Shown here piece by piece: positions 20,955-46,903 of a stretch of 64,000 nt of DNA (positions are counted from its first letter, which is position 1; every line of letters starts with the position of its first letter). The translations under genes and the position numbers were made by a program. A model generated the notes under the pieces. It was not told the DNA's origin. It was given only the letters and a program-made list of their open reading frames with translations, and searched no databases. Source of the DNA: Mycoavidus cysteinexigens (GTDB taxonomy: Bacteria > Pseudomonadota > Gammaproteobacteria > Burkholderiales > Burkholderiaceae); the NCBI GenBank assembly GCA_031963465.1, contig JASSUG010000003.1, forward strand, positions 117,982-181,981, in the 5' to 3' direction.

Positions 20955-23900
20955 TGAGGGGCTGGCGCGTACTCGGTTGGCTGGTGCCAGGTAGCTTGGC
21001 AATCGCCGCATTGATGGCAGGCGCACTGTTGTATGCCAGCCATACTGAACAAGGAACTCGTTCTCTCTGGCAAATTGCGCGCATGCTGTCGGGCGGCCGT
21101 TTAAGCGGCGCCCTAGACGGCGGCACTCTGGCTAGCGGCTTGCATCTGCAACAACTCGCCTGGCGGGCTAAAGGCAAGCAAATTTATATTGATCGGATCG
21201 ATGGTCAGTGGGGTTTTGCGCGCAAGCCATGGCGCTTGAAAGTAGATTGGCTGCGCATCGGCACGGTGGACGCACATTTTGCCCCTACCCCCAAAACGGC
21301 TAAAACACCGCGCTTGCCATCGCTGCCAAACAAGCTTGCGCTGCCGTTCGCATTTGAGATTCTAGAGTTGCGCGTTGACCGTTTGCGTTTACATCAAGTG
21401 CCGCCAGAGACACCGCGCCTTGCCGATAAAACAGGCAAAGCCAGCGCCGCGGTGACTGAATTCAGAGGGTTGGCTATGCGCGCTCGTAGCGATCGTGATC
21501 GCCATCAGTTTACCGTTGAGCCACTCATCACCCCCTTTGGCGAGCTTAAAGGGGAGGTCCAGCTTGATGCTCGCCAACCTTTTGCGCTGACTGGCGCGGT
21601 TCATTTCTTAAGCCGGCCGCAGCCTAAATCTGTTTGGCCAATCCAACACGTGCATTTGCGTTTATCGGGTTCGCTTGAGCAGATGATCATCGATGTCGAT
21701 GCACTAGGCGCCAAACTGGCAAGCCATGCTCGGATTGAAATCACGCCGCCATTTTCAGCGTCATCTATAGAAGCGGCGACGGAGTTAAAATTTGAATTAT
21801 ATGATAGCGTTTATGCCGGCCTGCCGCTCACCGGCTCGGGCATAGTGCAATTAGGCGCAGAACGCGTTTTGTTAAACTCAGTACAACTCTCGATTGCGGG
21901 CAATATAACGGTTTGGCAAGGTAGCTTAGGCCAGCCAGGCGATCAATTGTGGTTTGAGCTGAATGCGCCTCACCTTGAACGGCTGGCAGCGTTTTACTCT
22001 GGTTTAAGCGGCAGATTCAAAGCAAACGGGCATTTAAGTGGGCATTTTGCCAAGCCTAATATTGTTGCGAGTTATCAAGCTGCGTCGCTTGGCTTGGGCC
22101 AAACTCGCATTGAACAGGCAACAGGGCAGGTCGAGATGCATGAGGCGGCCAATAGCGCCCTCGTATTGAACCTGGATGGGCGTAATCTCGTGATGCCCGG
22201 CGTGACGATGCAAACCCTGAAAGCACGGGTGGCGGGTACGCGCGAGCGCCATCGATTGACTGCACATGCAGTCGGCCAGGCCAGTAAAAAGCCGTTCGAT
22301 CTAAGTATGGCGGCGCATGGCAGCTTACCAAGCACCTTAGCGAAGATGCGTTGGCACGGTACGCTGACCCAGTTTGAAAACCGTGGCTCGCTACTCAATG
22401 TAGCCGCGGGCTTGCCCATTCTACGCCTTGCCGCGCCTGTTGCCATCAGCATCGAGCCTAAACGTTTCAGCCTTGGAGCGATGCAATTAGAGATTGAGCA
22501 AGCCATGCTTGATTTACGCGCATTGGTTTACGAGCCGGGCCTGATTCGTTCAGCAGGAACGCTAAAAGGGATTGATGCGGATTGGTTATTGCGTCTTGAG
22601 CAGGCCTTGACCGGTAAGATGGATACGTTCAAAACCGACCTTGTCTTGGATGGTGATTGGGATTTTTCATTAGGCGAGAGAGCGACTGGCTATGCACAAT
22701 TGATGCGGCGAACCGGCGATGTCAGGCTTAATGCTAGCCGGAAATTCACCGCGCTGGGCCTTGATCACCTGTCAGCGCGCGTCGATTTATCTGGTCGGCG
22801 GCAGGCGCATCTCAACCTGCGCGCACACGCTGCGCGGCTTGGTGCATTAGAGGCGAATTTACATTCATCATTGAGTTTAAATCAGGGCCAGTTGTCGATT
22901 GCGCCCGAGGCGCCGCTGTCAGGACGGATCGCCGTGTCGCTGCCTTCGCTCAAAACCATGAGCGCTTTGCTTGGTCCGCAATATGTGTTTGAGGGGCGTT
23001 TAGCGATGGACTTGACTCTGGCCGGACAGATTGCCAAACCTAAATTGTCGGGCCTATTAAGCGGTGATGACCTAGCCGCCAACTTGCTCGATGATGAGAT
23101 TGCATTGACGCGAGGCATTGTGCGCATTGCGCTATCTGAGAATCGGGTTGATTTCCGGCCGGTTGAATTTCATGGTGTGGAAGGTACCCTGCGAATTCTT
23201 GGGAGCATTGCACTGGATCATGTCAATCCTGCTTTATCGGCCAAGATCGTCGCGGATAAATTCGAACTCTTTGCTACGCCAGACAAACAGTTATCCCTCT
23301 CTGGCCAGGCCGTGCTCGCCAATCATGATGCCGCAGGCGGATTAGCGATCGACGGCGACTTTAAGATAGATCATGCGCTGTTTGATTTACCGGCCACGTC
23401 AGCACCGAAACTGGCCGATGATGTGGTGATTATTCGCGCCAATGACGAGCTAGCAGGGGCCGCACTGAACCTTGTCGCGCCAGATGGCGAGCGCTCCGCC
23501 GGCCGTTTTTTGCCGGCGGCAAAAATCAATATCGATCTCGGCCGTGATTTTCGTTTTCATGGCGCTGGCGCAGATTTAAAACTGCGCGGCAAATTAGGCG
23601 TAAGCAGTGAATTTAAGCAACCACTCCATGCCGTTGGCGATATTCGGGTTGCTCAGGGTTCAACCTATGAAGCATTTGGTCGCAAGCTTGCGATTGAAAA
23701 TGGCTATTTTGGATTTAATGGACCGATTGCTAATCCAAGCATTAATGTTCTCGCGATGCGGCGTAATCAGGAAGTTGAAGTTGGCGTGCAGGTCAGCGGT
23801 ACCTTACGTATGCCGAACGCACGGTTGGTTTCAGAACCCAATTTACCAGATAGTGAAAAAATTTCTTGGCTGCTATTTGGCCATGGCAGCAGTGACAGCA

Positions 23901-24214
23901 TGAATCTGGGGCAAACCAATACCACCGCGGCAGCCTTTGCATTACTAGGCGGCGTTGGCGGCAAGCGGATCGCGCAAACGATGGGCCTCGACGAATTTTC
24001 GATTGGTCAAAGTGAGGCCGGGCTAACTGATCCGCAGGTCGCTAACCTTGCCAAGGCGCTGAATGAACGTTTTGTCCTGGGCTATGAGCAAGGGCTCACA
24101 ACCGCGGCCAGCATTTTCAAAGCGACTTGGCAATTTTCGCGCAGTTGGTCACTGACGGCCCATACTGGAACGCTGAATGGCATTGATTTGCTCTTTAACC
24201 GGCGCTTTGATTGA
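20954..24214 (+). CDS. tamB: translocation and assembly module protein TamB (DUF490)
   Basis: 1086 aa. N-terminal membrane anchor, long beta-rich body, and C-terminal DUF490-like end ([14 protein letters not shown]...[11 protein letters not shown]). Confidence 0.8.
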
Positions 24215-25895
24215 GTGAACCCTGGTTAGCCGCTAATAGCGCCTCAATTTGCTTAGCTTCAACGCGTGTCATTAAATGCTGATACGGTTGCAGCGGCTGC
24301 TTAGCCGTGAGCGGAGTTAAATCATGCGACCAGGCCAGGGGGCCAATGCCAAGAAAAGCCTCAACTTTAGCGGCTAAGCCCGGTAAAACAGGTTTGAGCG
24401 CAAGCGTGAGCAAGCGGAACGCTTCTAAACTGACACTACATGTTTCATGTAATGGGGTTGTTTGGGTAGGGTCTTTCGCCAGACTCCAGGGCTTGGTTGT
24501 ATCAATATAAAGATTGACTGCATCGGCTTGTTCCATGGTGATGCGTAAGGCGCGCGCGCTATCGCGGCTTTCGTAGTGGGCGGCAATGGTCGGCAGCGCG
24601 GTGCGTAGTTGCACCAGTAATGGATGATGCATGGCGCTGTCTAGTACGCAACCATTAAAGCGCTTAGCTAAAAAACCAGCCGTGCGGCTGGCAATATTGA
24701 CATACTTACCCACCAAGTCACTATTGACACGCAGGATGAAGTCATCAAAATTCAAGTCAAGATCTTCTAGCGATCCATTCAGCTTAGTCGCGAAATAATA
24801 GCGCAGCCATTCTGGATCGAGTCCTGCTTGAATATAACTATGTGCAGTAATGAAGGTACCGCGTGACTTCGACATTTTTTGCCCATCGACGGTCAGAAAA
24901 CCATGCGCAAAGACATTGGTTGGCGTGCGATAACCGGAAAACTCTAGCATCGCTGGCCAAAACAACGTATGAAAATATAAGATATCTTTGCCAATAAAAT
25001 GATACTGCTCAGCGGTGCTACCGGGTTTAACCCAAGCATCAAAATCCAGTCCCCGTTGATCGCATAACGCTTTAAAGCTTGCATAATACCCAAGCGGTGC
25101 ATCAAGCCAGACATAAAAATACTTACCTGGCGCATGCGGAATCTCAAAGCCAAAGTAGGGTGCGTCGCGTGAAATATCCCAATCAGCGAGTTGCGTGGTA
25201 TGACCGTCTTGACTCTCTGCGCCGCTACCCAACCATTCGCTCATCTTATTGCGGGCTTCAGGCTGCGCTAGCTGGGCCACCCATTGCCGCAGAAAATTTT
25301 CGCAGCGGGGATCGGAGAGCCGGAAAAAATAGTGAGTTGAAATTTTGCGGATCGGCGTCGCGCCGGAAACCACTGAATAAGGGTTCACCAGTTCGGTGGA
25401 TTGATAGGTCGAGCCGCATACTTCGCATGAATCGCCATACTGATCTTGAGCCTGACATTTGGGGCAAGTACCCTTAATAAAACGGTCAGGCAAAAACATC
25501 GAGCGGACTGGATCATACGCTTGCTCGATCTCGCGTGTATCGATTAAGCCAGCGTCCGCCAGGGTCAGATAAACTTGCTCACAAAGCTGTTGGTTGGCCG
25601 CGGAATCGGTTGAATCATAATGATCAAAAGAAATCCCAAAGTCATCGAAATCCCGTTTGTGCTCAGCCCAAACTCGTTTGATCAAGGCTTGCGGCGTGAT
25701 CCCCTCTTTTTCTGCGCGTAGCATAACGGGTGTGCCGTGCGTATCATCGGCCCCTACGTAGTACACCTGATGGCCATGCATACGCAAGGCTCGAGCCCAA
25801 ATATCGGTTTGTATATATTCAACTAAGTGACCAAGATGAATTTGGCCGTTGGCGTAGGGCAGGGCAGAAGTGACAAGAATGCGGCGAGTGGGCAT
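24195..25895 (-). CDS. metG: methionine--tRNA ligase, short form without the C-terminal tRNA-binding appendix
   Basis: 566 aa. HLGH, zinc knuckles CPKC...CEVCG, KMSKS. It ends just after the anticodon-binding domain. 20-nt convergent overlap with tamB. Confidence 0.92.
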
Positions 25896-26236
25896 AGGGG
25901 CGTTGAATCAGGCAAAGCATAGATTTTAACAAAGCCCGAGGGTACCGAGTGTGATTTAAGTTGCTCGGGTCATGCGTGTCCTTAGTAAATAACTTCAGAT
26001 CGCACATCCAAGTGTCGAAGGATATGATCAAAAAACCGGCCGGGCTGGGCGCGCTTACTTTAACCTCGGACTAGAAGTCGTTGCGGGTGAGGATTAAAGC
26101 ATCGAGAGAAAGCCTTAGAAAATCAAATTTATTAAAAATATTATTTAAATAAATGAAATTATCATACAATTAAAATTAAAAAATTATTTGGTATATTAAA
26201 AAACATCATTTAAAATCCTTAATTAATTATTATTAA

Positions 26237-29200
26237 ATGGGGTGGATGATGTTAAAACCAATCAATGGCGTTTCGATTCAACACATTCGATCTGCTTCTA
26301 TTACCACTAACAGACAAGAGCCAATAACACCCCACTCTCGTGAGGAAGCAGACTCGCCGACGCTGAATACCGCCCAGCCCAATGCGGCAGGCATTTTATA
26401 TAACCAACACGCAAATTTCAACGTGGATGCACCCGGCGTCATTTTGCAGAACGGCTCGACTGTTCGGATTATTTTGCATCATGTGATCGGGCGCACGCTT
26501 TCGCAACTGAATAGCGTGATAAAAATCGCCGGGGAGCCGGCTCAATTGGTTTTTTCCAATGCTAACGGCATTGATTGTTGGGGATGTAATTTTCTCAATA
26601 CCAAACATCTGGTGCTCACCACCGGCGAGCCTATTTTAAATAGTAATGGCGATCTTCAGGCCTTTCGCGTAAAGGCAGGTCAAATTACGATCAAAAGCAA
26701 CACGACACTCAAACAGTTTGAGCAAATTGACCTGATTGCGTACTCCATTCAAGTAGAGGGAGAATTGTCCGCCAATAAGATCAACATGAGCACGGGGACG
26801 CACGAAATCAATTACGTGGATACGGGGCTGCCCACGATCACGCGGCGACAGGAACTATCCATCGCAAGTAGCGAGACCAACCAGAGTTCGCGCCGCGCGA
26901 GTAGCTTGCAATTCATTGAGACAGCGAGAGTGTGGGCTAAAAAGCATCTGAATATTCAAGCTGATACGCTAGATAATGCCAGCCATCGGGTTCAATCAAA
27001 CGGTGATTTAACCGTCAAAGCGGTCAGTTTTACGGGTGCGGGAACGCTGAGCGCGGCGCTTGATCTTGCCGCAGAGTTTGAAGAAGACTACACCCATAAA
27101 AATCAATTGAGTGCAGGCCGTCATCTATCGATTTCGACGCCTAAGCGCTTAATCAATCAAGGCACCATACAAACTCAAGGTGAAGTTACACTGGAGGCAA
27201 CAGAGCTTGAGAATCAAGCAAAGTCTTTGATAGATGGCGTTCATCTTACGCTCAAAGCAGGAGGGTCGCTTAGAAACCACGGCGTGATTCAAGGTGGCAG
27301 CATAGCCATCGACGCACCAAGCTTGGTCAATGATGGTACGAATCATACCGAGGAACATCAAGCTGGAGCAATATTGGCGCAGCGCCAGCTTACAATTCAA
27401 GCACAGACTCTGCGCAACCAAGAACACGGATTAGTGCGTAGCGATGGCGAACTGACTATAGGAGATGCCCTCGGTACCCAACGCAAATTGACTGACTCAA
27501 CACAAGAGTTGGTGAATTCCGGCTCTTCTATGATTGAGTCAAGAGGAAAACTCTCGATCCAAGTGAGTCTGTTAGACAATCAAAAAGGACAAATCACAGC
27601 ACATTCTGACCTTATCCTAAGCAGTCAAGCCATTCTAAACCAAGAGGGGCGCATAGAAGCTCAAGGGGAGCAAAGCGTGTTCGATGTTTACACCGCTGCG
27701 ATAAATAATACTTCTGGATGGCTGCTTCATACAGGAACCGGGCAGACTCAGATTGTTGCGCGTGTAACGATAGCGAATTTCAATACTAAAGCGATAACAG
27801 GAGCTGGGTTAATCTTTGGTAAAGGTCCACTTACTATTCACTCTCCCGAAATAATAAATTACGAAGGGGGAGCAATTATTTCGGATCAAATGCTCAAAAT
27901 AAAAACTCCCTACTTGGGCAATCAATTGAGCACCTTATCGGCTGGCCAGAAACTAGAGATTGACACCGATAAATTACAGAATGTAGGAGGCTTGATAACT
28001 GTTGGCGAGCATGAGAAATTCAAGGCGGAGGCTGCCCATAGCGTACCAAGTCTAGCCCGTCACGCTCCTGACTTAGGCGTACTTGAAGTGAATGCTCAAG
28101 AAGTCATTAATACTGCACATAAGGGTGAAAAAGCCAAAGGCAGTTTAATTCGTGTTCAAGGCAAGGTAGTGATGAAAGCAGAGAAAATCTACAATGCGAA
28201 TAAAAGTCAGATTTTAGGGAAGGAGGTGGATCTGAACGCAAAAGAACTCTTCTCCAACGATGCGAGCACGGTGTACGCAAGCGACACGTTTTCGTTGAAG
28301 ACCCATCGCCTTGTCAATTTAGGTAAAGGGATTTTGCAAAGTGAGGGTAAGTTCCATATTTCAGTGAATGATGAGTTGGGCAATCTGAAAGGGCACATCA
28401 TAGCGAGCTCAGATCTTGTTCTGAAAAGTAAAGTACTGGACAATCAAGAAGGCCATATAGAAACCAGGGGAGATCAAAGCGTATTGGACGTGCAGGTCGA
28501 CCTGATTAACAATGCCTCTGGCCAGTTGCTGAATACAAGTGCAGGACAGACTCAAATTGTGGCGCGTCAGAAAATGCTGAATCGCAATATGGATGCAGTA
28601 GAAGGGCGGGGATTCATTTTCGGCAAAGGCCCTGTGAGTGTCACCTCTGCTGAAATAGTCAATGATAAAGGAGGGGTCATTTTTTCGAACCAAATGCTCG
28701 AAATAAAAGCTGCCGACTATGTGTACAATAAATTTGCTACCTTATCGGCCTACCAAAAAATCGACATTAACACCCCTAGCTTAAACAACTACGCTGGAGG
28801 ACTCATTAGTGTAGGAACGGAAGAAGCTGCCAAGACGGCGACCTCGACTGGCGTCCATAGTCCGGACAACCTTACCCATCACGCGGGCGTGCTTACAGTC
28901 CATGCGAAGCAAGTGCATAACATCCTGGATAAAGGCGAGACGCAAGGTGGTCTGATCCGTTTGCAGGGCAAGGTCGAGATGGCGGCAGACAAAATCTTCA
29001 ATGGAAATAAAAGTCAGATTTTAGCGAAAAATGTGAGTTTGAATACAAAAGAACTTTTTTTCGACGTTGGCGGTACGGTATTTGTAAGCGATACATTGGA
29101 TTTAATTGGACACATTTTCAAAATAAAGGGCGAAGTACAGGCGAAGAGTATTCACCTGCTGAGCGGAGTTAGCCAAGTGTGTGGCACGGAGGCACATTCT

Positions 29201-32200
29201 TGGAAGAGTACAGCCAATACAGAGTTTCCTGACAAGGAAGCGCAATTTAGTCAAAGCTGGATGACTGTATTCCAACAGGCTAAAATGTATGTTAGCGGCA
29301 ATCTATCGATTTCGAGTTCGGGTAGCTTACTGAATCAAGGGGAGTTAAAAATAGAGGGCGATATTTCGCTTAAGGCGAGATCCCTAGAGAATCAAGCAAG
29401 CGCTGTGATCGACGGACGATTTCTGACGTTAATCCTACACGATCAGCTTAGAAATGATGGAGTAATCCAAGGCAGCACCGTGGTTATCAGTGCGCAGAGC
29501 CTGGCCAATGATGGTAGCGAGGATACCGATGAACATCAAGCTGGGGCAATCATGGCGCGCCGCCAACTTACCATTGGAGCGCAGACTCTACACAACCAAA
29601 AACATGGCTTAGTACATAGCGATGGAGAATTAACCATAGGTGGCTTCCTCAATGCTCAGTACAAAGTAGAAGGTTCAGCACAGACTCTAAACAACACCAC
29701 GTCTTCCACCATTGAATCGAGAGATAAGCTATTGATCCAAGTCAATCATTTCGACAATCAAAATGGGCAAATCACAACGAGTTCGGACCTTGTCCTGAGG
29801 AGTAAAGTTCTCAACAATACGCACGGCCATATAGAAGCCAACGGTGATCAAAGTGTATTGAATGTGCAGGCAGACACGATTGACAATACCTCAGGCCGAC
29901 TGCTTCATACTGGCATAGGACAGATTCAAATCCTGGCTCACGATTCAATTGTGAACCGTAATGCAGAAGGGGTAAAAGGGGCGGGTTTCATTAGTGGTAA
30001 AGGTCCTGTTACCGTCACCGCTCCTCAAATATCAAATGATGAGGGCGGGACATTTTTTTCGAACCAATCGCTCGAAATAAAATCTGCCACCTTATTGGAC
30101 AACCAAGGCACTTTGCACGGTAAGGATCACGTTTGGATCGAGGCTAAAGCGATAAGCAACGGTATAAGCCGAAAGACTGAAGTGACTGGAGAGCCTGAAG
30201 AGCCTGAAATGGCTCTATTGAGCGCATTGTCTCAATTAACTAACCAATTAAGCAAGATGATACAGGGGGATTTTCAGCCGAATGAGTTTAAAAACCCCGA
30301 GTATTTGATTACTGGCAATAAGATTTCAATAAGCGCGCATGATGGCTTGATCAATACGAATGCCGTGATCTTCGCGCAAAACAGTCTCGAGATCGGTGCC
30401 AAGTGCATTAACAATTTCGAACAAGGCATACTCTATAGCGGCGGTAATCTGACTATTGGCGGTCAGTTTGATACTCAGTTCAAAGTAACGGGCGTCAGTG
30501 AGCATGTTTTCAATTATGGATCAACGATAGATGCGCTAGGCGACCTTGTGATCAATTCAGAAACGTTGCTCAATGCAAACAGGAAGTTCAAGACCGAAGA
30601 ACAGGTCATTGAACAGCGAGATATACATGAATGTCATGATCACCATACCAACCAACGCTACGATGGATCTCAAATCGGATGGCATGGTGACGTAGGGGGC
30701 CTTTACCGTGTGCACCACTCCGGTGTAGAAATTTTTTGTTTTACCAACTATAGCTTTACCCGTCGTGTGTCAACGACTGTGGTCACGCACAGCGAGCCCG
30801 GTAAAATTCAAGCGGGTGGGGAGATCCGCTTATCGGGAGCGGTCATTAATGATAAAAGCCGGATTATTGCCGGGGGAGCGCTCAGTGACCTCGAAGGTGG
30901 AGCGGCTCAGATTAATAACCGTGATGCCAACGGTCAGCGTGTCACCACCGATCAGGGAACATCGCAATGGTCAGACAGAGACTGGCATGGTGGAATGTTT
31001 AGTCGGGGCTGGAGTCGTGATTGGAGCGGGCACGTACCCTACCATCCAGCTCCGGTGGTAGAACACCACAATTTGAATGTAGCCGTCTCTCAACAACACA
31101 CTGCGGTTGACCATCAAGCGCCCTCTACAGCGCTAGTGCGCACCTCTGCCCTAACAAGCAGCAGCCCTTTTTTGAATAGTGGCTTACAGCACTTTCAGCT
31201 CGATCCTGCTCAACCCTATCTGATTCAAACCGATCCCCGTTTTACGCGCAACAGCGATACCGTTTCTAGCAATTTTTTACTGAGCTTACTCAATCTCGAC
31301 CCCCAACGCGTCCCAAAGCGCTTAGGGGATGGCTTTTATGAACAGCAACTGATTCGCGATCAGATTATTGGTTTGACAGGTCACTATTATCTATCTGGCT
31401 ATCGAAACCAAATTGCTGAATTCAAAGCTTTAATGCATCGAGGCGCAAATTGGGCCAAACAGCATAATCTGACGCTAGGCATCGAGCCCACGCCGCAGCA
31501 AATTGCCGCTTTAACCGCGAGTCCAGTCTGGATGGTGAATCAACGCGTTAAATTACCGGATGGCTCAGAACAGACGGTCTTGATGCCCAAAGTCTATCTG
31601 GCTAACAGAGATGTCAGTCCAATTCCGTTGGGCGGCTCGCTGATTTCAGCCAACACCATTGAACTGCATAGCGATCATCCCCTAAAAAATGCCGGCACGA
31701 TGATCAGCCGCGGTAAGATGGCTCTCACTGCACGCAATATTGATAACCAGCGCGGCGCAATCGTCAGCTTGGACACCCTCTCGATACAGGCGAGCCATAA
31801 TATCGATAGCCGTGCTGGCCAGCTGATTGCCGTCAAAAAAATGACTTTAAAAGCTGGACAGGATCTCCACCTGCAGAGCCAAACCTATACGACCCACGCC
31901 GCCAGTGGCAGCCAGACAGCGCTGGATGGGGTCACCGAAGTTCGAGCCAAGCAATTAGACGCGTATGCCGAATCGGACATTCATCTGGCGGCGACTCAAA
32001 TCAAGGTGGATGAAAACGCCCGTTTAGAAGCCAAAGGGGACCTCACACTAGGTACAGCCACGGTAAGCACCCAACACCAATTAACCTGGGATGAACGCAA
32101 TAGCTTAAGCCTAAGCAGAAAAACAGAAATCGGCACGCAAATTGAAACGGGCGGCTCACTTGAACTTAAGTCGGGCCGGGATATCTATGCGCCTGGCGCT

Positions 32201-35200
32201 TACGTGAATGCTGGCAAAGGACTTTCTGTCAAAGCGGATCGAGATATTAACGTGGAGGCAGCCTATGAAGAGACGGATTTTGAGGAATCTCATTATCATG
32301 AGTCGAGCAATTTCTTCTCCTCGTCGAGTGAACTCACGCAAAACAAACTGTATAGAAAACAAGCATTGAGCAGCACCTTATCCGGCGGCACGGTACAGAT
32401 AGAAGCCGGACATGACCTGAATATCATGGGTTCAAACGTGATCGGGATGCACGATGTGGATCTCTATGCTGCCAACGATATCCAGCAAAAAGCGGTCGAG
32501 CAAGCTGAGAGAGGCCGGCACTATTCCGTTAAAGAACGCTCAGGCTTATTAGATAGCGGGCAATTCGGAATGACTGTGGGCACGCGGACACAAACAGATA
32601 CTCAAGAAAATGAGCACACGCCCCAGATTGGCTCGGTAATCGGCAGCGTATCCGGCCATGTCAGAGCCATTGCCGGCCGTGAATACAAGCAAAGTGGCAG
32701 TCAGCTGGTTGTGCCGACAGGCGATATCCAGATTCAGGCTGGCAAGGCCAAGATCGATGCGTCCTATGAGGAGAGCCGGGTCTGGCAGCGCAGTGAATGG
32801 CAGCAATCGGGTTTGACGGTTTCGGTCAGCGCGCCCGTGCTTGCAGCGGCACAAACGAGTCAGCAGATGCTACAGGCCAGTACCCAAGTCAGTGATCCAC
32901 GGATGCAGGCGTTGGCGGCAGGCGCAGGTGCACTGGCGATGAAAAATGCCTACGATGCGATCCAGGCGGATCCCAAAGCAGCGGGTGGCGCGACAGTGAA
33001 CGTGATGATTGGCGAAGATCATTGTGAAACAGAGCAGACGCAACTGAGCAAGACGGCGCTGAACAGCACGCTGGCGGCAGGGGGAAATATATCGATCCAG
33101 ATCGGTGGCTTAGGAGAAGAATCCACGCTGGACCTGATTGGCGCTCGCATAGAAGCAAAACAGGAGATTACGCTTAACGTAGAAGGTCGACTGAATGTGG
33201 AGGCTGCGCCGAATAGCTTGATTGAGCAGAGTCAGCAGCAGAGCCGGAGTGTTGCCGTGGGGATGGCGGCAACGCTTGGCAGCCAGAATTCAGTGGGGGC
33301 CTCGCTGGCGGTAAGTGTTGGGCATGGCCATGCAGATGGGGCGCAAATCAGCTATACGCCGACCTTGATCCAGGCGGGTGGCAAGCTGACGCTTAATGCA
33401 CAAAGCGATGTGCGCCTAAAAGGCGCGCAGATAGCTGGAGCGCAGGTCAAAGCGCAGATTGAGGGCGATCTTGAAATAGACAGTGTGCAAAACACGGCAA
33501 CTTACCGTAGCCACTCTCAAAGTATCAGTGGCAGCGTAACAGTAGGTCCTGTCTCAGCGGCCAGCCTGCATTTCTCGCAACGTAGGATGGACAGTCGTTA
33601 TCTGAGCGTGGCGGAACAAGCGGGGATTCAAGCGGGAGAAGGGGGCTTTCAGATAACCGTTAAAGGGGATACGAAGCTTGTCGGTGGCGTGATTGCAGGG
33701 GCTGAGCAGGCAGTACGGGAAGGCAGGAACACCCTGCTTACAGGAACCTTGCACCAGACTGATCTGACGAATCAAGCGAGCTATGATGCAAGCAGTATCA
33801 GTTTAGGTGGCGGGTACAGTAAAAGTGGCAAAGGGGTGGGCTCGAAGCAATCAGGAGAAGTGACAACGCCTGCTCATAGCGGCAATCAACTGGCAAGCCG
33901 GGGTGGGATGAGCGCTGCGATACCGATTGTGATGAGTGCTTCGGGTCAGGCACAGTCTACAACCCGCAGTGCGATTAGCGGTGCGGAGATTGTGATTACG
34001 GATGAGGCCCGGCAAATGGAGTTGACGGGTCAAAGCGCGGCAGAGACGATTGCCAGCCTGAACCGGAATTCGGCACACAGTCATCAAGCGTTAGCGCCGA
34101 TTTTTAACCGGACTGAGATTGAGGCTAGCTTTGATATCGTCAATGCATTAGGTCGGGAAGCGGGTACCTTTATCGCCAATAGAGGCAGAGAAGCGGATCA
34201 TAAGCTTGAGCGAGCCAAAAATATAGAGACGCAGGCCAATGATGAGTCTATGTCTGTAGCGCAGCGGCAAGAATTGCTGGCAGCCGCGGCTGAATTACGT
34301 GCGCAGGCACAGACTTTGAATAAGCAATGGGGAGCCGGAGGGAGCTACCGTCGCATCGTCACTGCGCTGACGGCAGCGGCAGCAGGCAATGTGACTGGGA
34401 CCACCGCGCAATTTACCCAAGCGGCGGCGCTCAACTATTTGCAAAGCTTGGGTGCCGAAAAAATCAAGCATATTGCAGATAGCCTGCATGATGAAACGGC
34501 GCGTGCTGCCTTGCATGGGGCATTGGCTTATGGCGGCGCAGTCGCACGGGGGCAATCGGGTGGCGCAGCGGCCTTGGGCGCGAGTGCAAGTGTATTAGTA
34601 AATACTCTATTAGGTCCTGTAGAAGGCGAGTCTGAAGAGGAGAAAGAGGCGCGCAAGAATATAGTTACTAGCCTAGTGGCGGGGTTTGCGGATGTAGGAG
34701 GGGTTGATGCGACATCCGCGCAGACTGCGGCGCAGATTGAAACAGAAAATAATGCGATGGTGCTGGCGGCACCGTTATTGGTCACCCCACCTGGACTTGC
34801 TTTATTAGGTTTATTAGGCGCGGTGGCTACAGGTGCGGTGGTGGTGAAAGGCGCCATGGATTATTATGAAGAGTATAAAGAGCGGGCAAACAATACTAAG
34901 CAGCCTGGAGAGGACGATAATCAGTTAGTACAACAGGCTCCGGCGCCAATGTTCACGCTTATTATGGAACCGCCGCAGTCGTCCCTGATTCCCGGCACGG
35001 CATGGCATCCGGATGAAGAAGTGCTGCTTGGAGGTAAGCCTAATCAATCTGGGGAGCATGTCCTTCAGCCTATAGAGACGCCCAGGGAGGTTCAATCAGC
35101 AGCAGGTAATGCGCTGGAGAATCCGATTGCCGAGCCGTTGACTATACTTGACACGGTCAAATATAGTAAGGGGACGAAGAATGCGAATAGAGACAAGGAT

Positions 35201-35506
35201 TATGTGCCGAATGCGGGTGCTGTTGATAATATGGAGCAATTTTTTAATGAAACAGAGTTTGGTAAGGAAATAAAACTTGTAGCTAGGGCTACTAAGGAAT
35301 TTTATGATGGTCAGAGAATATACGAAGTAACCAAAAAGATTAAGGGTAAGGTAGCGAAAAGGGATCTTTTTTATTTGGATAATAAACACTTGGATCATTT
35401 GGAGGTGCTTGACGCAAATAAATCTTTCAAGTATGTTTTGAATCTTGATGGCACAATTAATGAGATCAAAACAGAAAAAGCAAAAGGTAGAAGATTGGAG
35501 AAATAG
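26237..35506 (+). CDS. cdiA: CdiA/FhaB-family two-partner-secretion exoprotein with a C-terminal polymorphic toxin domain
   Basis: 3089 aa. TPS-domain motifs NAAGILYNQHANFNV and FSNANGIDCWGCNFLNT near the N-terminus, and long beta-helical hemagglutinin-type repeats. Conserved LGDGFYEQQLIRDQI...LTASPVWMVNQRVKLPDGSEQTVLMPKVYL block. TENN (VENN-like) boundary at 34742-34753, followed by a 250-aa tip. Confidence 0.85.
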   Translation: MGWMMLKPINGVSIQHIRSASITTNRQEPITPHSREEADSPTLNTAQPNAAGILYNQHANFNVDAPGVILQNGSTVRIILHHVIGRTLSQLNSVIKIAGEPAQLVFSNANGIDCWGCNFLNTKHLVLTTGEPILNSNGDLQAFRVKAGQITIKSNTTLKQFEQIDLIAYSIQVEGELSANKINMSTGTHEINYVDTGLPTITRRQELSIASSETNQSSRRASSLQFIETARVWAKKHLNIQADTLDNASHRVQSNGDLTVKAVSFTGAGTLSAALDLAAEFEEDYTHKNQLSAGRHLSISTPKRLINQGTIQTQGEVTLEATELENQAKSLIDGVHLTLKAGGSLRNHGVIQGGSIAIDAPSLVNDGTNHTEEHQAGAILAQRQLTIQAQTLRNQEHGLVRSDGELTIGDALGTQRKLTDSTQELVNSGSSMIESRGKLSIQVSLLDNQKGQITAHSDLILSSQAILNQEGRIEAQGEQSVFDVYTAAINNTSGWLLHTGTGQTQIVARVTIANFNTKAITGAGLIFGKGPLTIHSPEIINYEGGAIISDQMLKIKTPYLGNQLSTLSAGQKLEIDTDKLQNVGGLITVGEHEKFKAEAAHSVPSLARHAPDLGVLEVNAQEVINTAHKGEKAKGSLIRVQGKVVMKAEKIYNANKSQILGKEVDLNAKELFSNDASTVYASDTFSLKTHRLVNLGKGILQSEGKFHISVNDELGNLKGHIIASSDLVLKSKVLDNQEGHIETRGDQSVLDVQVDLINNASGQLLNTSAGQTQIVARQKMLNRNMDAVEGRGFIFGKGPVSVTSAEIVNDKGGVIFSNQMLEIKAADYVYNKFATLSAYQKIDINTPSLNNYAGGLISVGTEEAAKTATSTGVHSPDNLTHHAGVLTVHAKQVHNILDKGETQGGLIRLQGKVEMAADKIFNGNKSQILAKNVSLNTKELFFDVGGTVFVSDTLDLIGHIFKIKGEVQAKSIHLLSGVSQVCGTEAHSWKSTANTEFPDKEAQFSQSWMTVFQQAKMYVSGNLSISSSGSLLNQGELKIEGDISLKARSLENQASAVIDGRFLTLILHDQLRNDGVIQGSTVVISAQSLANDGSEDTDEHQAGAIMARRQLTIGAQTLHNQKHGLVHSDGELTIGGFLNAQYKVEGSAQTLNNTTSSTIESRDKLLIQVNHFDNQNGQITTSSDLVLRSKVLNNTHGHIEANGDQSVLNVQADTIDNTSGRLLHTGIGQIQILAHDSIVNRNAEGVKGAGFISGKGPVTVTAPQISNDEGGTFFSNQSLEIKSATLLDNQGTLHGKDHVWIEAKAISNGISRKTEVTGEPEEPEMALLSALSQLTNQLSKMIQGDFQPNEFKNPEYLITGNKISISAHDGLINTNAVIFAQNSLEIGAKCINNFEQGILYSGGNLTIGGQFDTQFKVTGVSEHVFNYGSTIDALGDLVINSETLLNANRKFKTEEQVIEQRDIHECHDHHTNQRYDGSQIGWHGDVGGLYRVHHSGVEIFCFTNYSFTRRVSTTVVTHSEPGKIQAGGEIRLSGAVINDKSRIIAGGALSDLEGGAAQINNRDANGQRVTTDQGTSQWSDRDWHGGMFSRGWSRDWSGHVPYHPAPVVEHHNLNVAVSQQHTAVDHQAPSTALVRTSALTSSSPFLNSGLQHFQLDPAQPYLIQTDPRFTRNSDTVSSNFLLSLLNLDPQRVPKRLGDGFYEQQLIRDQIIGLTGHYYLSGYRNQIAEFKALMHRGANWAKQHNLTLGIEPTPQQIAALTASPVWMVNQRVKLPDGSEQTVLMPKVYLANRDVSPIPLGGSLISANTIELHSDHPLKNAGTMISRGKMALTARNIDNQRGAIVSLDTLSIQASHNIDSRAGQLIAVKKMTLKAGQDLHLQSQTYTTHAASGSQTALDGVTEVRAKQLDAYAESDIHLAATQIKVDENARLEAKGDLTLGTATVSTQHQLTWDERNSLSLSRKTEIGTQIETGGSLELKSGRDIYAPGAYVNAGKGLSVKADRDINVEAAYEETDFEESHYHESSNFFSSSSELTQNKLYRKQALSSTLSGGTVQIEAGHDLNIMGSNVIGMHDVDLYAANDIQQKAVEQAERGRHYSVKERSGLLDSGQFGMTVGTRTQTDTQENEHTPQIGSVIGSVSGHVRAIAGREYKQSGSQLVVPTGDIQIQAGKAKIDASYEESRVWQRSEWQQSGLTVSVSAPVLAAAQTSQQMLQASTQVSDPRMQALAAGAGALAMKNAYDAIQADPKAAGGATVNVMIGEDHCETEQTQLSKTALNSTLAAGGNISIQIGGLGEESTLDLIGARIEAKQEITLNVEGRLNVEAAPNSLIEQSQQQSRSVAVGMAATLGSQNSVGASLAVSVGHGHADGAQISYTPTLIQAGGKLTLNAQSDVRLKGAQIAGAQVKAQIEGDLEIDSVQNTATYRSHSQSISGSVTVGPVSAASLHFSQRRMDSRYLSVAEQAGIQAGEGGFQITVKGDTKLVGGVIAGAEQAVREGRNTLLTGTLHQTDLTNQASYDASSISLGGGYSKSGKGVGSKQSGEVTTPAHSGNQLASRGGMSAAIPIVMSASGQAQSTTRSAISGAEIVITDEARQMELTGQSAAETIASLNRNSAHSHQALAPIFNRTEIEASFDIVNALGREAGTFIANRGREADHKLERAKNIETQANDESMSVAQRQELLAAAAELRAQAQTLNKQWGAGGSYRRIVTALTAAAAGNVTGTTAQFTQAAALNYLQSLGAEKIKHIADSLHDETARAALHGALAYGGAVARGQSGGAAALGASASVLVNTLLGPVEGESEEEKEARKNIVTSLVAGFADVGGVDATSAQTAAQIETENNAMVLAAPLLVTPPGLALLGLLGAVATGAVVVKGAMDYYEEYKERANNTKQPGEDDNQLVQQAPAPMFTLIMEPPQSSLIPGTAWHPDEEVLLGGKPNQSGEHVLQPIETPREVQSAAGNALENPIAEPLTILDTVKYSKGTKNANRDKDYVPNAGAVDNMEQFFNETEFGKEIKLVARATKEFYDGQRIYEVTKKIKGKVAKRDLFYLDNKHLDHLEVLDANKSFKYVLNLDGTINEIKTEKAKGRRLEK

Positions 35507-35516
35507 AGTGAGTTCA

Positions 35517-36302
35517 ATGTTGGATTTTAATAAATTTAAAGCGCGTTTAATCGAATGCCTTAAGTCTCATGGTTTGGATCTAGAAGCATCAAATAAAAGG
35601 ACTGGGCTTCTAGTATGGTATATAGATTGGGATGATAATTTTAATGACTCATTTGAATTTGAATTGAGGCAGATAAAAAATGCGCTTGATCTATATGATA
35701 AAGCTCTGTTAGAAAAAGATGTGTTAACAACTAAGGCAGCTATTCTCCATGCCTCCATAAAAATTGAACTATTTTCAGGCAGTCCATTCAACGCAATTTC
35801 ACGCGATTTGACAAGAGTTCTTAATGATAAAAGTTTCAATTGGCCTCCTTTGAGAAAAGGTTATGTTATTCCAAATAAATATTTGGATAAAAAAATAAAC
35901 GGAATCGACCAGGAAGAACTGATGAGTTTAACTAAAATTCAAAAAATCTTGATAGATCTAGTCAAATCACATGGTGTGACGGACGAAGAATTAAAGCAGG
36001 TAGGTAAGCGAACAAAGCGTTTAATATGGGGTATCGACCTGAACAGCGACTTCAATAAAATCTTCTATGAAAAGCTGCTAGCTTTGCAAATAGCTTTTGA
36101 TGCATATGAAAAAGCATCTATACAAGAGGACTGGCGAGCAGTTCGAGCGATCCTCCAAAGAATTAGGCTAATCAATTTTCAGCTCTATAAATTCTTGGAC
36201 GGGATTAGAGTAGCGCTAAAAAGTGCATGGTTAGACAAACGTTTTTGGCCCTCTTTCCCGGAAAATTATAAAATACCAGCGCACTATAATTATGAAGAAT
36301 AA
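35517..36302 (+). CDS. candidate CdiI-type immunity protein (two tandem homologous halves)
   Basis: First ORF after the cdiA stop (35506), with ATG at 35517 or GTG at 35508 after GGAG. Same AT-rich composition as the toxin tip. No recognisable family. Internal duplication is visible in the translation. Confidence 0.5.
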   Translation: MLDFNKFKARLIECLKSHGLDLEASNKRTGLLVWYIDWDDNFNDSFEFELRQIKNALDLYDKALLEKDVLTTKAAILHASIKIELFSGSPFNAISRDLTRVLNDKSFNWPPLRKGYVIPNKYLDKKINGIDQEELMSLTKIQKILIDLVKSHGVTDEELKQVGKRTKRLIWGIDLNSDFNKIFYEKLLALQIAFDAYEKASIQEDWRAVRAILQRIRLINFQLYKFLDGIRVALKSAWLDKRFWPSFPENYKIPAHYNYEE

Positions 36303-36391
36303 GCTAGCTTGTAGAGTTAGGATGAAGTTCGCATTGAGTAAGCAAAACGGGGTAAGATCATAGGCCAAGCGCATGATCAAATTCGCGAGAC

Positions 36392-36414
36392 AAAAAAACG
36401 GGGCCAAAGCCCCG
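36392..36414 (-). terminator. rho-independent terminator (minus strand), separated from its gene by the IS66 insertion
   Basis: Minus strand reads CGGGGC-TTTG-GCCCCG followed by TTTTTTT. It lies 15 nt outside the IS left end. Confidence 0.7.
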
Positions 36415-36468
36415 TAATAAGAAACAAGGTACCTTCTCAATAACCCGGGGCGAACGCCGGCAAACTGC

Positions 36469-38103
36469 TCAAGCAGAGGCTGCGATGGATTGTTCGACAA
36501 GGTGCGGCAGAAGTGGAATTTGATCGCTGCACGAAATGCGGTCGGTGAGGTAATCCCAGAACGAGATGCCCAGCTTGCGACAGGTCTTCTTCAGGGTGGA
36601 GAAAGTATCGCGACATTGCCGACCGAGCTCGCTTCGCGTGCCACCACTGATCTTTTGCTTTTTCACGTGATCGCGAATGTCGCGTTCACTGTCGTTGGTG
36701 TGGAGTGGAACCTCAGGGCGTTCTAACACCAGTAGTAACTCGGATTTATTTTGGTGAATCCGCCTGAGCAGACGATTGAGTGTTGCGTAGCGGGTCTTCT
36801 GGGTGAAGATCGTATCAAAGCGCGCCGCCAGTGTTTTTTTGTCTGTAGCCGTGGGCTGCAGCTTGTATGCTTTCAGATCGGCATAGAGCGTCCAGATCTC
36901 GTCACGCACCCGGGCGATGTCCTCTCGATGTTGATCATTGAGCGGTAGCATCTTATGTACCAATCTTTCTGCATGGACCCAACATAATCCGTGAATCAGC
37001 ACGTTGAACTGCCCTGCATCATCGCTGATGATGGCCAGATCTGGGGAGACGCCACGCTGCTTCAGACTACCCAGCAGTGCGCCCTCGGTAGCAATGTTGC
37101 GGTGGCGCGGAGCGTCCATCCCCAAACAATCCAGGTGGTGCTGCCACGCTCCCTGGTCAGCGAAGCTTGTGCTCTCGTGTTGCCGCAGCGCGTCCAGGAA
37201 CACTTGCGAGAGCCCCTGCTTTTTCATGTACGCGAGCGCGTCTTCGTTGATCTGGTAATCGCCATGGCCCGCACGCAATAATGCCAGGAAATTGATCCGG
37301 CTCTTCGAGTCCGTGCTTTTGAACCACGCGAAATGCGGGTTACCAATGTGGGTGACGTAGCCGCTCCGGCCTCGATGCCGCGTGCCGGTATCATCAACCG
37401 TTACATACGCCGAGAGCGCCAAGCCGGTCGATAACAGCCCGTCTTTTTCCGCATGAAACTGCTCTTTGCCTTCTTGCAACAGCGTGTTTACCTGCCCCAC
37501 TGAGATCTCGATGCCCCATTCCCGCAGTTGCTCGCATAGCAGCGGCTGCGTGACGTGACAATGGTAGTGCTGGTAGAGCACATAGCTCACCAGAGCCGGG
37601 CCAAAATGGCCACCGCCGACTGATTTGGGAAGCTGCCCGATCAGAGTCTGGCCGTCTGGCGTTTGCCAGCGTGCCAGTCGATACCGCGTGTTGCGTGATT
37701 CGATTGTCAACTCTTGCACTACGAAATCACGATAGCCCTTGAATCGGGAACCTGGCGGAATCGGCTCGGCCGGTTCGATGATTGTGTCACGATCAATCTT
37801 CAGTTGCGCCGTCTTGTGCTTCTTCGCTGATCCGGGCCGTTTGGCCGCTTCCTCATTCTGCGTTTGATCTGGTTTGGCAGGCTTGCCAGCATCCTCGTTC
37901 ATGCGGCTTGGCTTGAACGTCGGACGCTTCTTTTCCCCCTGGAGCACCGCGACTTCGTCTTTCAGATGCCCTATGTCCTCCAGCAATTGATGGATGATTT
38001 CGACCAGTCCGTCACTCCATGCGAACACCTTCATGACCGCCGGCGTCCGATCGACTTCGGCGACATACGGTGCTGAGAGTTTCTTCAGCATGGCGCTTCT
38101 CAC
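36469..38103 (-). CDS. IS66-family transposase (DDE body)
   Basis: 544 aa. Typical IS66 TnpC-like sequence (DDTGTRH..., CWVHAERL, HTNDSERDIR...KISGGTRS). Confidence 0.85.
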   Translation of the reverse strand: MRSAMLKKLSAPYVAEVDRTPAVMKVFAWSDGLVEIIHQLLEDIGHLKDEVAVLQGEKKRPTFKPSRMNEDAGKPAKPDQTQNEEAAKRPGSAKKHKTAQLKIDRDTIIEPAEPIPPGSRFKGYRDFVVQELTIESRNTRYRLARWQTPDGQTLIGQLPKSVGGGHFGPALVSYVLYQHYHCHVTQPLLCEQLREWGIEISVGQVNTLLQEGKEQFHAEKDGLLSTGLALSAYVTVDDTGTRHRGRSGYVTHIGNPHFAWFKSTDSKSRINFLALLRAGHGDYQINEDALAYMKKQGLSQVFLDALRQHESTSFADQGAWQHHLDCLGMDAPRHRNIATEGALLGSLKQRGVSPDLAIISDDAGQFNVLIHGLCWVHAERLVHKMLPLNDQHREDIARVRDEIWTLYADLKAYKLQPTATDKKTLAARFDTIFTQKTRYATLNRLLRRIHQNKSELLLVLERPEVPLHTNDSERDIRDHVKKQKISGGTRSELGRQCRDTFSTLKKTCRKLGISFWDYLTDRISCSDQIPLLPHLVEQSIAASA

Positions 38104-38104
38104 G

Positions 38105-38281
38105 CTACGTACCCCTGGCTTTTTTGAGTCGGGCGGCCTTCTGTTTCAATTGCTCAACCTCTTGCTGCAAGCCATTAGCTACTTCTACGAGTTGCTCGAT
38201 CCACGCCCGCAACTCCTGATCCTGCGGCCCGAGGTCCTCTCGTGCAATGTCGGGTAGTGTAAATTTTGGAGGGAGGGTCAT
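38105..38281 (-). CDS. 58-aa coiled-coil ORF: N-terminal leucine-zipper segment of the IS66 transposase in a different frame
   Basis: MTLPPKFTLPDIAREDLGPQDQELRAWIEQLVEVANGLQQEVEQLKQKAARLKKARGT. It ends 1 nt before the main ORF's GTG (38103) and overlaps the open part of that frame. Too short for the ORF track. Confidence 0.6.
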   Translation of the reverse strand: MTLPPKFTLPDIAREDLGPQDQELRAWIEQLVEVANGLQQEVEQLKQKAARLKKARGT

Positions 38282-38560
38282 AAATGTGGCAGAAATGATG
38301 TCGGCGTGATGAACGTTAACATCACCCTCTACCGTTTACAAGCGAAATTCGTTACGTCGCGCGAGCACGCTGCTCCGCCGATCTTGACCAAGCGAGCCGG
38401 CCAAACAGCGCAGCGTTGTGCGATGGTTGCCCCGGGTTATTGAGAAGATACGAAACAAGCGAAGAAAGTGGCACAGAGGTCATAATCTTCTCTGTGCGCC
38501 AAAAGGCCTGACCGGAGACTATCCGCTAAGTTCTCAATTTCTTTTGCAATTGTGTTGATT

Positions 38561-39229
38561 TCACTGGATAGGTTTAGCTTGCAGCGGGTACAAGAAAATT
38601 TCGACTCGCCGGTTTTGCATGCGGCCAGTCGGTGTGAGGTTGTCCGCAATCGGTTGAGCTTGCCCGCGCCCTTCGGAGGAGAGCCGGCCAGAGGCAACGC
38701 CGCGGCTGACGAGAAAATTCACCACCGCCAGTGAGCGGCTTTGCGAAAGCGTCATATTGTAAGGGACCGCGCCGGTATTATCGGTGTGACCAATGATCCG
38801 GGCCACCAACTCTGGATTTTGCACCAAGGTGCGCGCTACCTCATCAAGGGCCGGCGTAAATGTTGGCCGGATTTGATAGCTATTCGTGGCAAAAGAGACT
38901 GAACTCGGAATATTGACTTTGAGCGAACCGTCTTGTTGTTCAGTGATTTGCGTGCCAGTGCCTTGCGTGGCGCCTGCTAAGCGTTGCTTAATAGCTGACC
39001 AGTTGTAAGCTGTCAGACCGCCCGCTACGGCGCCGATGGCACCGCCGACCATGGCGCCTTCCGAGTTGCCAATGAGCGCACCCAAGCCAGCGCCCGTTGC
39101 AGCGCCAATGCCAGTGCCTAGCGCGGCATTGTTTTGTTGCCCAGCAGGCGCTGCACAACCCACCAAAAGTGCGCTGACAAGTAGGCAAGAAGCCAACGGT
39201 TGGACGATTTTTTTTGAGTTAACTTTCAT
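38561..39229 (-). CDS. OmpA-family peptidoglycan-binding lipoprotein with a glycine-zipper region
   Basis: 222 aa. Lipobox LLVGC, Gly/Ala-rich zipper, and C-terminal OmpA-like domain (GHTDNTG...YN..LSQSR...V..L...G, RRVEI). Confidence 0.85.
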   Translation of the reverse strand: MKVNSKKIVQPLASCLLVSALLVGCAAPAGQQNNAALGTGIGAATGAGLGALIGNSEGAMVGGAIGAVAGGLTAYNWSAIKQRLAGATQGTGTQITEQQDGSLKVNIPSSVSFATNSYQIRPTFTPALDEVARTLVQNPELVARIIGHTDNTGAVPYNMTLSQSRSLAVVNFLVSRGVASGRLSSEGRGQAQPIADNLTPTGRMQNRRVEIFLYPLQAKPIQ

Positions 39230-39602
39230 ACTACACTCCGGAGATTAAGTTATGGCGCTAAAGTGTGTTGCCGCCACTGGCGCAACCCTCACTATAAGGA
39301 TGACCTTCACACAAGAATCAGTTTACGTTCCTGTCTGAGTGTGAATAGTTTAAGGTTGCTCTAGAGCGGCCGCTTTGTACAATATATTTTTAGATTTCTT
39401 TTGTCATTGTCTGAATTGCGCATCACCTAAATGCTTTGTATCCGTTTGAATTATCCAATTTGCTTTGATCTCACGTTATGATGAATGGTTCTGAGCCGCT
39501 TTTACCAAGCTTAAGGGATGGGGCTATTGCACATTTAGGCTGCATAGTTTTAAATCTGCGGCCAAAGAGGCCTTACCGTGACAATCAATGAGGTGGAATT
39601 TT

Positions 39603-44341: not shown

Positions 44342-44389
44342 ACGCCAGACAAGGCACTTAAGAGCAGATCAATAGCTTGTGTCTGGCGT
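44342..44389 (+). terminator. stem-loop 31 nt after A2 (10-bp perfect stem, then TTT); candidate partial terminator before the processing genes
   Basis: acgccagaca (44342-44351) pairs with tgtctggcgt (44380-44389), followed by tttg. Confidence 0.5.
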
Positions 44390-44421
44390 TTTGCGAAGAC
44401 CATTACATAAAAAAGAATAAG

Positions 44422-46900: not shown

Positions 46901-46903
46901 CCA

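Follow-up and report, generated by a model that had tools for sequence, protein, structure and literature searches.

This report concerns a single, very large gene of Mycoavidus cysteinexigens, a Burkholderiaceae endosymbiont with a reduced genome that lives in the hyphae of Mortierellaceae. The gene lies in a stretch of 64,000 nucleotides from assembly GCA_031963465.1 (contig JASSUG010000003.1, positions 117,982 to 181,981 of the forward strand), which we call the window and to which all coordinates refer unless another locus is named. It occupies 26237..35506 on the + strand, forms one uninterrupted frame of 3089 codons, and codes for a protein of the CdiA/FhaB type. In our best reading of the sequences, it would be a CdiA-like polymorphic toxin that is specific to its lineage, maintained by selection, and leaderless, i.e. 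devoid of the signal peptide with which such proteins enter the Sec pathway. We put at about one half the probability that it belongs to a functional toxin system acting between strains and leaving the producing cell without Sec and without a TpsB transporter.

The identity of the protein is clear from its domains. Pfam detects a two-partner secretion (TPS) domain at residues 25-251 (E 4.8e-24) together with Fil_haemagg and Fil_haemagg_2, and NCBIfam adds adhes_NPXG (the N-terminal domain of filamentous haemagglutinin, FHA) and fil_hemag_20aa (the 20-residue FHA repeat). Both classes of repeat, FHA-1 and FHA-2, are present (PF05594; PF13332, E 3e-39; TIGR01731). The FHA-1 beta-helix region (27158..30160, + strand), delimited by self-comparison and Fil_haemagg matches, carries old internal duplications at 52-53% identity (residues 308-582 resemble 1034-1308, and 434-690 resemble 701-959), and the top-scoring Fil_haemagg_2 stretch of the FHA-2 part lies at 33017..33523 (+ strand), with more repeats from about residue 2030. 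The initial annotation of the window, made from the letters alone, had described an intact CdiA/FhaB-type gene of about 9.3 kb with a TPS secretion domain, and the open frame and these domain matches agree with it on both counts.

What sets the protein apart is its N-terminus. The first 47 residues (26237..26377, + strand) form a non-hydrophobic leader with the motif M(M)[LVI]K..N..S.Q, as judged from alignments, hydropathy and an AlphaFold2 (AF2) model, in which residues 1-60 have a pLDDT below 50 and are predicted to be disordered. Its mean Kyte-Doolittle hydropathy over 11 residues peaks at 0.96. The median for 139 TpsA relatives of other organisms, almost all of them equipped with a signal peptide, is 2.26; this comparison reveals no hydrophobic h-region in the window protein. 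Nor does that protein match the extended signal peptide region (ESPR), which the canonical relative P0031 does carry. When aligned with canonical TpsAs, the leader lines up with the last part of the h-region and with the c-region in their signal peptides.

The absence of a signal peptide, already remarked upon in the initial annotation, is not due to a misplaced start. As had also been noticed there, a TAA (26234-26236) abuts the annotated ATG in frame, and the 135-nt tract upstream is almost pure A+T, with stops in every frame. An upstream alternative start, or a frameshifted signal peptide, was considered and is excluded by these stops and by the in-frame stops found at every related locus. 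If anything, translation probably begins further downstream, at the ATGATG of 26246/26249, because the first ATG of the window reads ACG in a relative (L014, GCA_030160335.1); GGGGTGG, a Shine-Dalgarno-like sequence, sits within the annotated start of the open reading frame (ORF), ahead of this ATGATG. The AT-rich 5' region itself (26101..26236, + strand) was compared with the corresponding loci of BRE-NVP60 (L001) and of L014 and has promoter-like sites, namely sigma-70-like hexamers at 26170-26197 and 26188-26216. Over the ~169 nt upstream of the gene there are 6 differences from BRE-NVP60, whereas the coding DNA diverges more, and a near-identical tract precedes the gene in L014, there behind aroC; the tract goes with type-A genes (defined below) in three contexts. 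This conservation fits a promoter region, to which the low mutability of AT-only DNA could contribute.

The TPS domain (26309..26989, + strand; PF05860, alignment against canonical TpsAs, AF2 model) belongs to a degenerate subtype. It scores well above the cut-offs of PF05860 (86 bits, cut-off 33.5) and TIGR01901 (42.9 bits, cut-off 29.1). In the alignment with canonical TpsAs, however, a 21-residue loop containing NPNL is deleted between residues ~71 and 72, and NPNGI reads NANGI; the NPNL loop is missing in all 15 related Mycoavidus loci as well. The best PDB matches of the AF2 model, which is of moderate quality (pLDDT 61, TM ~0.34), are the TPS domains Fha30 (1rwr, E 4e-7) and HpmA265, from which the Mycoavidus domain departs at the NPNL turn and around the first strands, parts that are altered or missing. 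The domain is thus degenerate yet still constrained, with a dN/dS of 0.29 over codons 1-250 relative to the strain BRE-AD045.

Neither peculiarity is confined to the window. We assembled 15 related loci from at least eight Mycoavidus assemblies, including the complete genomes of B1-EB, B2-EB and SF9855 (strain identity of GCF_024582735.1 after PMC13528069) as well as metagenome-assembled genomes (MAGs) of M. cysteinexigens, and ran an exhaustive HMMER search over 1.84 billion cluster representatives. The closest homologue (P0001) is 87% identical and comes from a MAG contig whose RpoC groups with Burkholderiaceae RpoC and is identical to one deposited under the fungal name Linnemannia gamsii. 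The window is collinear with BRE-AD045 contig JASSUC010000028 at 95.3% identity over 15.7 kb. The nearest clusters begin at the same residue as the window protein (P0024, 2388 aa; P0026, 2266 aa; P0023 and P0025, ~1000 aa each), whereas most other HMMER matches align only from their residue ~90-150, i.e. past their signal peptide or ESPR. Every one of the 15 loci opens with M(M)[LVI]K..N..S.Q (in which M, N and Q are invariant and S almost so), has an in-frame stop 0-45 codons upstream, and lacks a hydrophobic stretch, the maximal 11-residue hydropathy ranging from 0.45 to 1.45. Database searches found no members of this toxin family outside Mycoavidus.

The members fall into two types, A (leader hydropathy 0.45-0.96) and B (up to 1.45), which are 45-50% identical in the TPS region and are found together in the same genomes. 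They occur in five upstream contexts: an intact recQ in BRE-NVP60 (L001), a recQ stub of 31 nt beside metG (the window and BRE-AD045, L007), aroC in GCA_030160335.1 (L014), mutY in B1-EB, and a LysR gene for the type-B copies of SF9855 and B2-EB. Because types that have diverged this far and reside together in genomes share the leader, the leaderless state predates the duplication into A and B; it is old and family-wide. Two side observations come from the same material. Very large ORFs with NACHT and WD40-repeat domains are located a few kb downstream of family loci in SF9855 (L003 20279-26020, 1913 aa) and B1-EB (L015 20963-23054, >1322 aa), and some Mycoavidus proteins are deposited under fungal names (an RpoC under Linnemannia gamsii, P0007; a TPS fragment under Podila verticillata, P0174), being endosymbiont sequence in fungal assemblies.

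The second pillar of our reading is selection. Relative to BRE-AD045, codons 1-1750 show 91 synonymous and 96 non-synonymous differences (dS 0.081, dN/dS 0.296), and the orthologue is open for 1983 codons to the end of its contig, with one single-codon in-frame indel and no stop. Five neighbouring housekeeping genes (panC, scpA, tamA, tamB and metG), all open in the window and under purifying selection, give a dS of 0.077-0.101 and a dN/dS of 0.07-0.21 in the same comparison. Since its dS equals that of these neighbours, the gene has co-diverged with the chromosome, under purifying selection that is somewhat relaxed but clear. The first 338 codons compared with BRE-NVP60 (L001) give a dN/dS of 0.36. 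Past codon ~1750 (window ~31487 onward) dS to BRE-AD045 climbs from ~0.08 to 1.8, which points to a recombination breakpoint with replacement of the middle or receptor-binding part. For the C-terminal part the comparison with B2-EB, at a dS of 0.55-0.96, gives a dN/dS of 0.19 for the FHA-2/pretoxin region, 0.34 for the toxin and 0.23 for the immunity gene described below. Purifying selection thus acts along the whole gene and on the immunity gene; that the gene was still under selection had been suggested at first from its unbroken frame, and the substitution rates now give this suggestion a firm footing.

The C-terminus is organised like that of a polymorphic toxin. Over residues 952-2841 the body of the protein shares 69% identity with the type-B protein P0024, and BLASTP homology ends at residue 2841, just beyond an ETENN motif (residues 2835-2839, 34739..34753, + strand) that constitutes a VENN-like boundary. 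P0024 has IENN at this place, then an unrelated C-terminus, with an ORF of the DUF6966 family overlapping its stop. The predicted toxin region of the window protein (residues 2840-3089, 34754..35503, + strand) has a hydrophobic stretch at its start and a conserved core of ~90 residues with DxFYLD..H..HxEV. It is ~62% identical to a B2-EB fragment over the last ~145 residues (75% over the whole C-terminal 990 residues) and recurs as short orphan ORFs in Mycoavidus sp. HKI, in B2-EB and on one 717-bp ENA contig, and was found nowhere else. It matches no Pfam or NCBIfam entry, no PDB sequence and nothing in Foldseek; a likeness to colicin D / PT7 was considered and set aside as too weak to count as evidence (AF2 pLDDT 54, best Foldseek E 0.97).

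Eleven nucleotides past the stop of the toxin gene begins a candidate immunity gene (35517..36302, + strand; 261 aa, with an internally duplicated domain). It had been proposed as such in the initial annotation, and the proposal gains weight from a homologue (63% identity) that follows the same toxin in B2-EB; apart from a faint match to DUF6853, searches of Pfam, NCBIfam and PDB returned no entry for it. In B1-EB (L015 17407-19382) the frameshifted family gene is followed by a DUF6853-like ORF of 264 aa, several small ORFs and a DUF6966 ORF, and the DUF6853-like and DUF6966 ORFs may be displaced (orphan) immunity genes. A conserved body, a VENN-type boundary, a swapped C-terminus and a linked candidate immunity gene together give the locus the predicted layout of a polymorphic toxin of the contact-dependent growth inhibition (CDI) type.

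The transporter that normally accompanies such a toxin is missing from the window and from the surroundings of the related loci. No TpsB is present in the 64-kb window, where each ORF of at least 205 aa has a non-TpsB Pfam identity or tblastn coverage, and the stretch 35400-39700, read in its three + strand frames, is free of ShlB/POTRA_2 signals. A tblastn search with a genuine TpsB from a canonical locus produced zero matches at E<=1 over 294 kb of window and loci (a positive control was included), and Pfam found no ShlB/POTRA_2 on the called genes within ~10 kb of the related Mycoavidus loci. The sole Omp85 protein of the window is TamA (19167-20954), followed by TamB (20954-24214). It had been claimed from the start that no Omp85/ShlB-type gene flanks the toxin gene and that TamA is the only Omp85 protein, and both Pfam and tblastn bear this out. 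TamA as a hidden partner was discarded, its adjacency stemming from the rearrangement at the recQ stub and being absent at other family loci. In Burkholderiaceae the normal CDI order is bcpA-I-(O)-B, with the partner gene downstream (PMC10449530), and it is therefore downstream that a partner is to be sought. Between the immunity gene and the next gene (OmpA-like), however, there is only ~235 bp of DNA that does not belong to an insertion sequence (IS), without a Pfam signal in the + frames, so there is no room for a bcpB and this candidate is excluded. Published descriptions of Mycoavidus genomes list type II, III and IV secretion systems (T2SS, T3SS, T4SS), a partial type VI system (T6SS) and hemagglutinin-like proteins, and do not mention a type Vb (T5b) transporter (PMC5877345); our literature search found nothing specific on type V secretion in Mycoavidus.

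How could such a gene have arisen, and what might it do? We think that signal peptide (the n-region and most of the h-region), NPNL loop and linkage to TpsB may all have been lost by an ancestral gene of the TpsA/BcpA type, and that the family would then have split by duplication into A and B, spread to several places on the chromosome and exchanged toxin/immunity modules, with purifying selection persisting in some lineages and decay setting in elsewhere; the window gene is the intact type-A member. Translation would start at the ATGATG of 26246/26249, with the conserved AT-rich region serving as the gene's own promoter, and toxin and immunity protein would act between Mycoavidus strains that share one hypha. 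The protein would exit the producer without Sec and a cognate TpsB, the candidate routes being a one-step system that reads the unstructured N-terminus (a T3SS for instance) or a lysis-type release such as that of the signal-less Tc toxins. A more specific version, in which a complete CdiA filament-toxin has been repurposed for Sec- and TpsB-free export (by T3SS, another one-step system or lysis) through recognition of the M(M)LK..N..S.Q leader and is aimed, inside the fungal hyphae, at rival endosymbionts or at the host, appears to us quite unlikely.

Several points weigh against our interpretation and should be stated together. Support for expression of the gene comes from sequence features. 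No export pathway is known to take a TPS/FHA filament independently of Sec, and the architecture of CdiA is designed around staging in the periplasm. A profile search with the leader found only two fragments of the family and no other protein families (it also missed known members, so this is a weak negative), and inspection by eye revealed no hrp/PIP-box-like motif upstream. The search for TpsB covered the 294 kb of window and loci, with which a TpsB elsewhere in the genome is compatible. Finally, many copies are broken: in BRE-NVP60 three tandem tyrosine recombinases interrupt the type-A copy at codon ~340, the type-B copy of B2-EB is split by IS21, and the type strain B1-EB has a 27-residue deletion in the TPS domain plus a frameshift. 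The family may therefore be on its way out. The same 27-residue TPS deletion is found in GCA_030160335.1, and the copy of GCA_031963035.1 is in fragments; the toxin family is kept in some Mycoavidus lineages and lost in others. As a separate observation, the element disrupting the BRE-NVP60 copy (L001 11156-14670) carries an IS110 fragment besides the three recombinases, and a Fic-domain gene comes after it.

The alternative that fares best is that the protein is still a two-partner substrate, exported by a distant TpsB, its short leader being a weak or atypical inner-membrane targeting signal. We consider this unlikely, although it has real attractions. Orphan TpsAs with a remote TpsB are documented in Bordetella and Neisseria, as is a relaxed specificity of BcpB (PMC10449530), and since such orphans are well known the missing TpsB neighbour is in itself ordinary. 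The constraint on TPS codons 1-250 would be sensible for a domain that still docks to POTRA domains, and the type-B leader, whose mean hydropathy reaches 1.45, falls only a little short of the value (1.55) that marks the 5th percentile among the other TpsA relatives. The type-A leader, on the other hand, falls far under these relatives, and neither form (MMLKVVNAISA / MMLKPINGVSI) has a hydrophobic core of 7-15 residues, K, P, N, Q and S interrupting it. The deletion of the NPNL loop, the lack of a TpsB within ~10 kb of any related locus examined and the silence of the published genome descriptions on a T5b system (PMC5877345) speak against this alternative as well.

It could also be argued that the gene is a functionless relic, unbroken by chance or kept open only because premature stops would depress expression of the immunity gene behind it. 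Among the orthologues and paralogues several are indeed truncated, split or deleted, the host is an endosymbiont with a reduced genome and many IS elements, and a dN/dS of 0.30 exceeds that of most neighbours. We nevertheless find a relic improbable. Neutrality would predict ~310 non-synonymous differences alongside the 91 synonymous ones where 96 are seen, and a single in-frame indel in 1983 codons has accumulated at a dS of housekeeping level. The missense constraint spans TPS, FHA-1, FHA-2 and toxin, which polarity on cdiI cannot explain, and types A and B are still open for 7-9 kb after having diverged to ~46% identity in the TPS region.

The T3SS deserves separate consideration. If the protein were a substrate of this system, its leader, rich in Ser, Thr, Pro and Asn and apparently unstructured, would be the export signal, and delivery would be to the fungal cytoplasm or to neighbouring bacteria. 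The leader has no Asp or Glu in its first 12 residues, Pro or an aliphatic residue at positions 3-4, and ~20% Ser+Pro in its first 50 residues, in accordance with the rule-of-thumb pattern of Hrp export; very large T3SS effectors exist; and AF2 predicts residues 1-60 to be disordered. Mycoavidus genomes do carry a T3SS (PMC5877345). Such rules of composition, however, have high false-positive rates, T3SS signals are seldom conserved as a motif, and the TPS/FHA/VENN architecture would be unprecedented as T3SS cargo. We rate export by this route as scarcely probable, a shade below the relic, mainly because inspection showed no hrp-box in the upstream DNA, no neighbouring gene codes for a chaperone and the leader was not found on other proteins (again a weak negative).

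Lastly, the suggestion of the initial annotation that the 5' end coding for a signal peptide was lost very recently, by rearrangement or by replacement of a signal-peptide exon with the AT tract, can safely be dismissed: although a rearrangement junction (the recQ stub) does lie 135 nt upstream, the comparison of 5' ends reveals the same start and leader in every family member, i.e. in type-A and type-B paralogues that have diverged below 50% identity, at 15 loci, in five contexts and at least eight assemblies, BRE-NVP60 with its intact recQ included.

It is useful to place this family among known systems. All TpsA/CdiA proteins characterised so far depend, to our knowledge, on a Sec signal peptide and on a partner of the Omp85 type. 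The Mycoavidus gene lacks two hallmarks of a T5b passenger (signal peptide and linked TpsB) and retains the third in part (a TPS domain minus the NPNL loop). Its closest architectural counterpart is BcpA/CdiA of Burkholderia (bcpAIOB), from the same bacterial family. Both have a TPS domain at the N-terminus, long FHA-1/FHA-2 beta-helix repeats and an (E/V)ENN-like boundary with a variable toxin at the C-terminus; in both the immunity gene is tightly linked, and relatives contain orphan toxin/immunity fragments. The Mycoavidus gene differs in having neither ESPR/Sec signal peptide nor NPNL loop, in having no bcpB or bcpO on either side, and in toxin and immunity domains that match no database family. 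Like the orphan TpsAs FhaL/FhaS of Bordetella and those of Neisseria, it is a tpsA gene without an adjacent tpsB. As far as is known, these orphans keep a normal signal peptide, whereas the Mycoavidus protein misses the signal peptide itself.

The nearest precedent is rCRCT/CRCA of Rickettsia buchneri, a CDI-like/Rhs-like toxin-antidote pair with no predicted signal sequence in a genome without cdiB, for which Sec-independent export has been proposed (PMC9111745). In both cases a leaderless toxin/antidote pair of CDI type is found in an intracellular, host-bound bacterium; unlike the Rickettsia proteins, which are described as remnants once appended to larger proteins (PMC9111745), the Mycoavidus family keeps the full TPS/FHA architecture of 7-9 kb under selection. 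In our literature search no leaderless TpsA clade described as being under selection came up. Here a whole clade is without signal peptide or nearby partner and has nonetheless been selected through duplication, relocation and toxin swapping, which means either that there is an unrecognised route by which a large beta-helical toxin can leave the cell, or that CdiA-like proteins have a role that does not require export. If export free of Sec and TpsB is true, this would be the first passenger derived from type Vb to work outside type V secretion. The clade also provides the first candidate for warfare between strains of bacteria that live as endosymbionts in fungi. If instead a TpsB and cryptic Sec targeting exist, the case reduces to an unusual signal peptide on an ordinary orphan TpsA.

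The surroundings of the gene correspond to what had been described at the outset, with one addition. Upstream are metG (24195-25895, minus strand) and the AT tract, and between them alignment with L001 uncovered the last ~31 nt of recQ, stop included (26070..26100, + strand), which mark an old rearrangement junction. A full recQ stands at this junction in BRE-NVP60 (L001 7997-9862), whereas in the window and in BRE-AD045 the stub lies ~170 bp from metG; recQ was thus lost or moved at this site in the lineage of the window. Downstream of the immunity gene lies an IS66-family element (36429-38451, or 36421..38459 with its duplication, - strand) with 23-nt inverted repeats and the 8-bp target duplication GAAACAAG; it is a simple insertion without deletion, as had been read from the duplication at first sight. 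It is followed by the OmpA-like gene, in convergent orientation, and by apbC/mrp. The DNA that separates the immunity gene from the IS contains a GC-rich hairpin, GGGGCcaaaGCCCC, at 36392-36417, with an A-run ahead of it. On the minus strand the hairpin has a T-run behind it, so it probably terminated the convergent OmpA-like gene before the IS was inserted.

Two further features of the window may be recorded. An AbiEii/AbiEi toxin-antitoxin pair (12512-14138, minus strand) adjoins an ORF for a group II intron reverse transcriptase/maturase (14699-15982), and at 44377-48700 an ABC exporter gene and genes for proteins resembling transglutaminase (PF13471) and asparagine synthase (PF00733), all three adjacent, make up the gene set of a putative lasso-peptide biosynthesis cluster.

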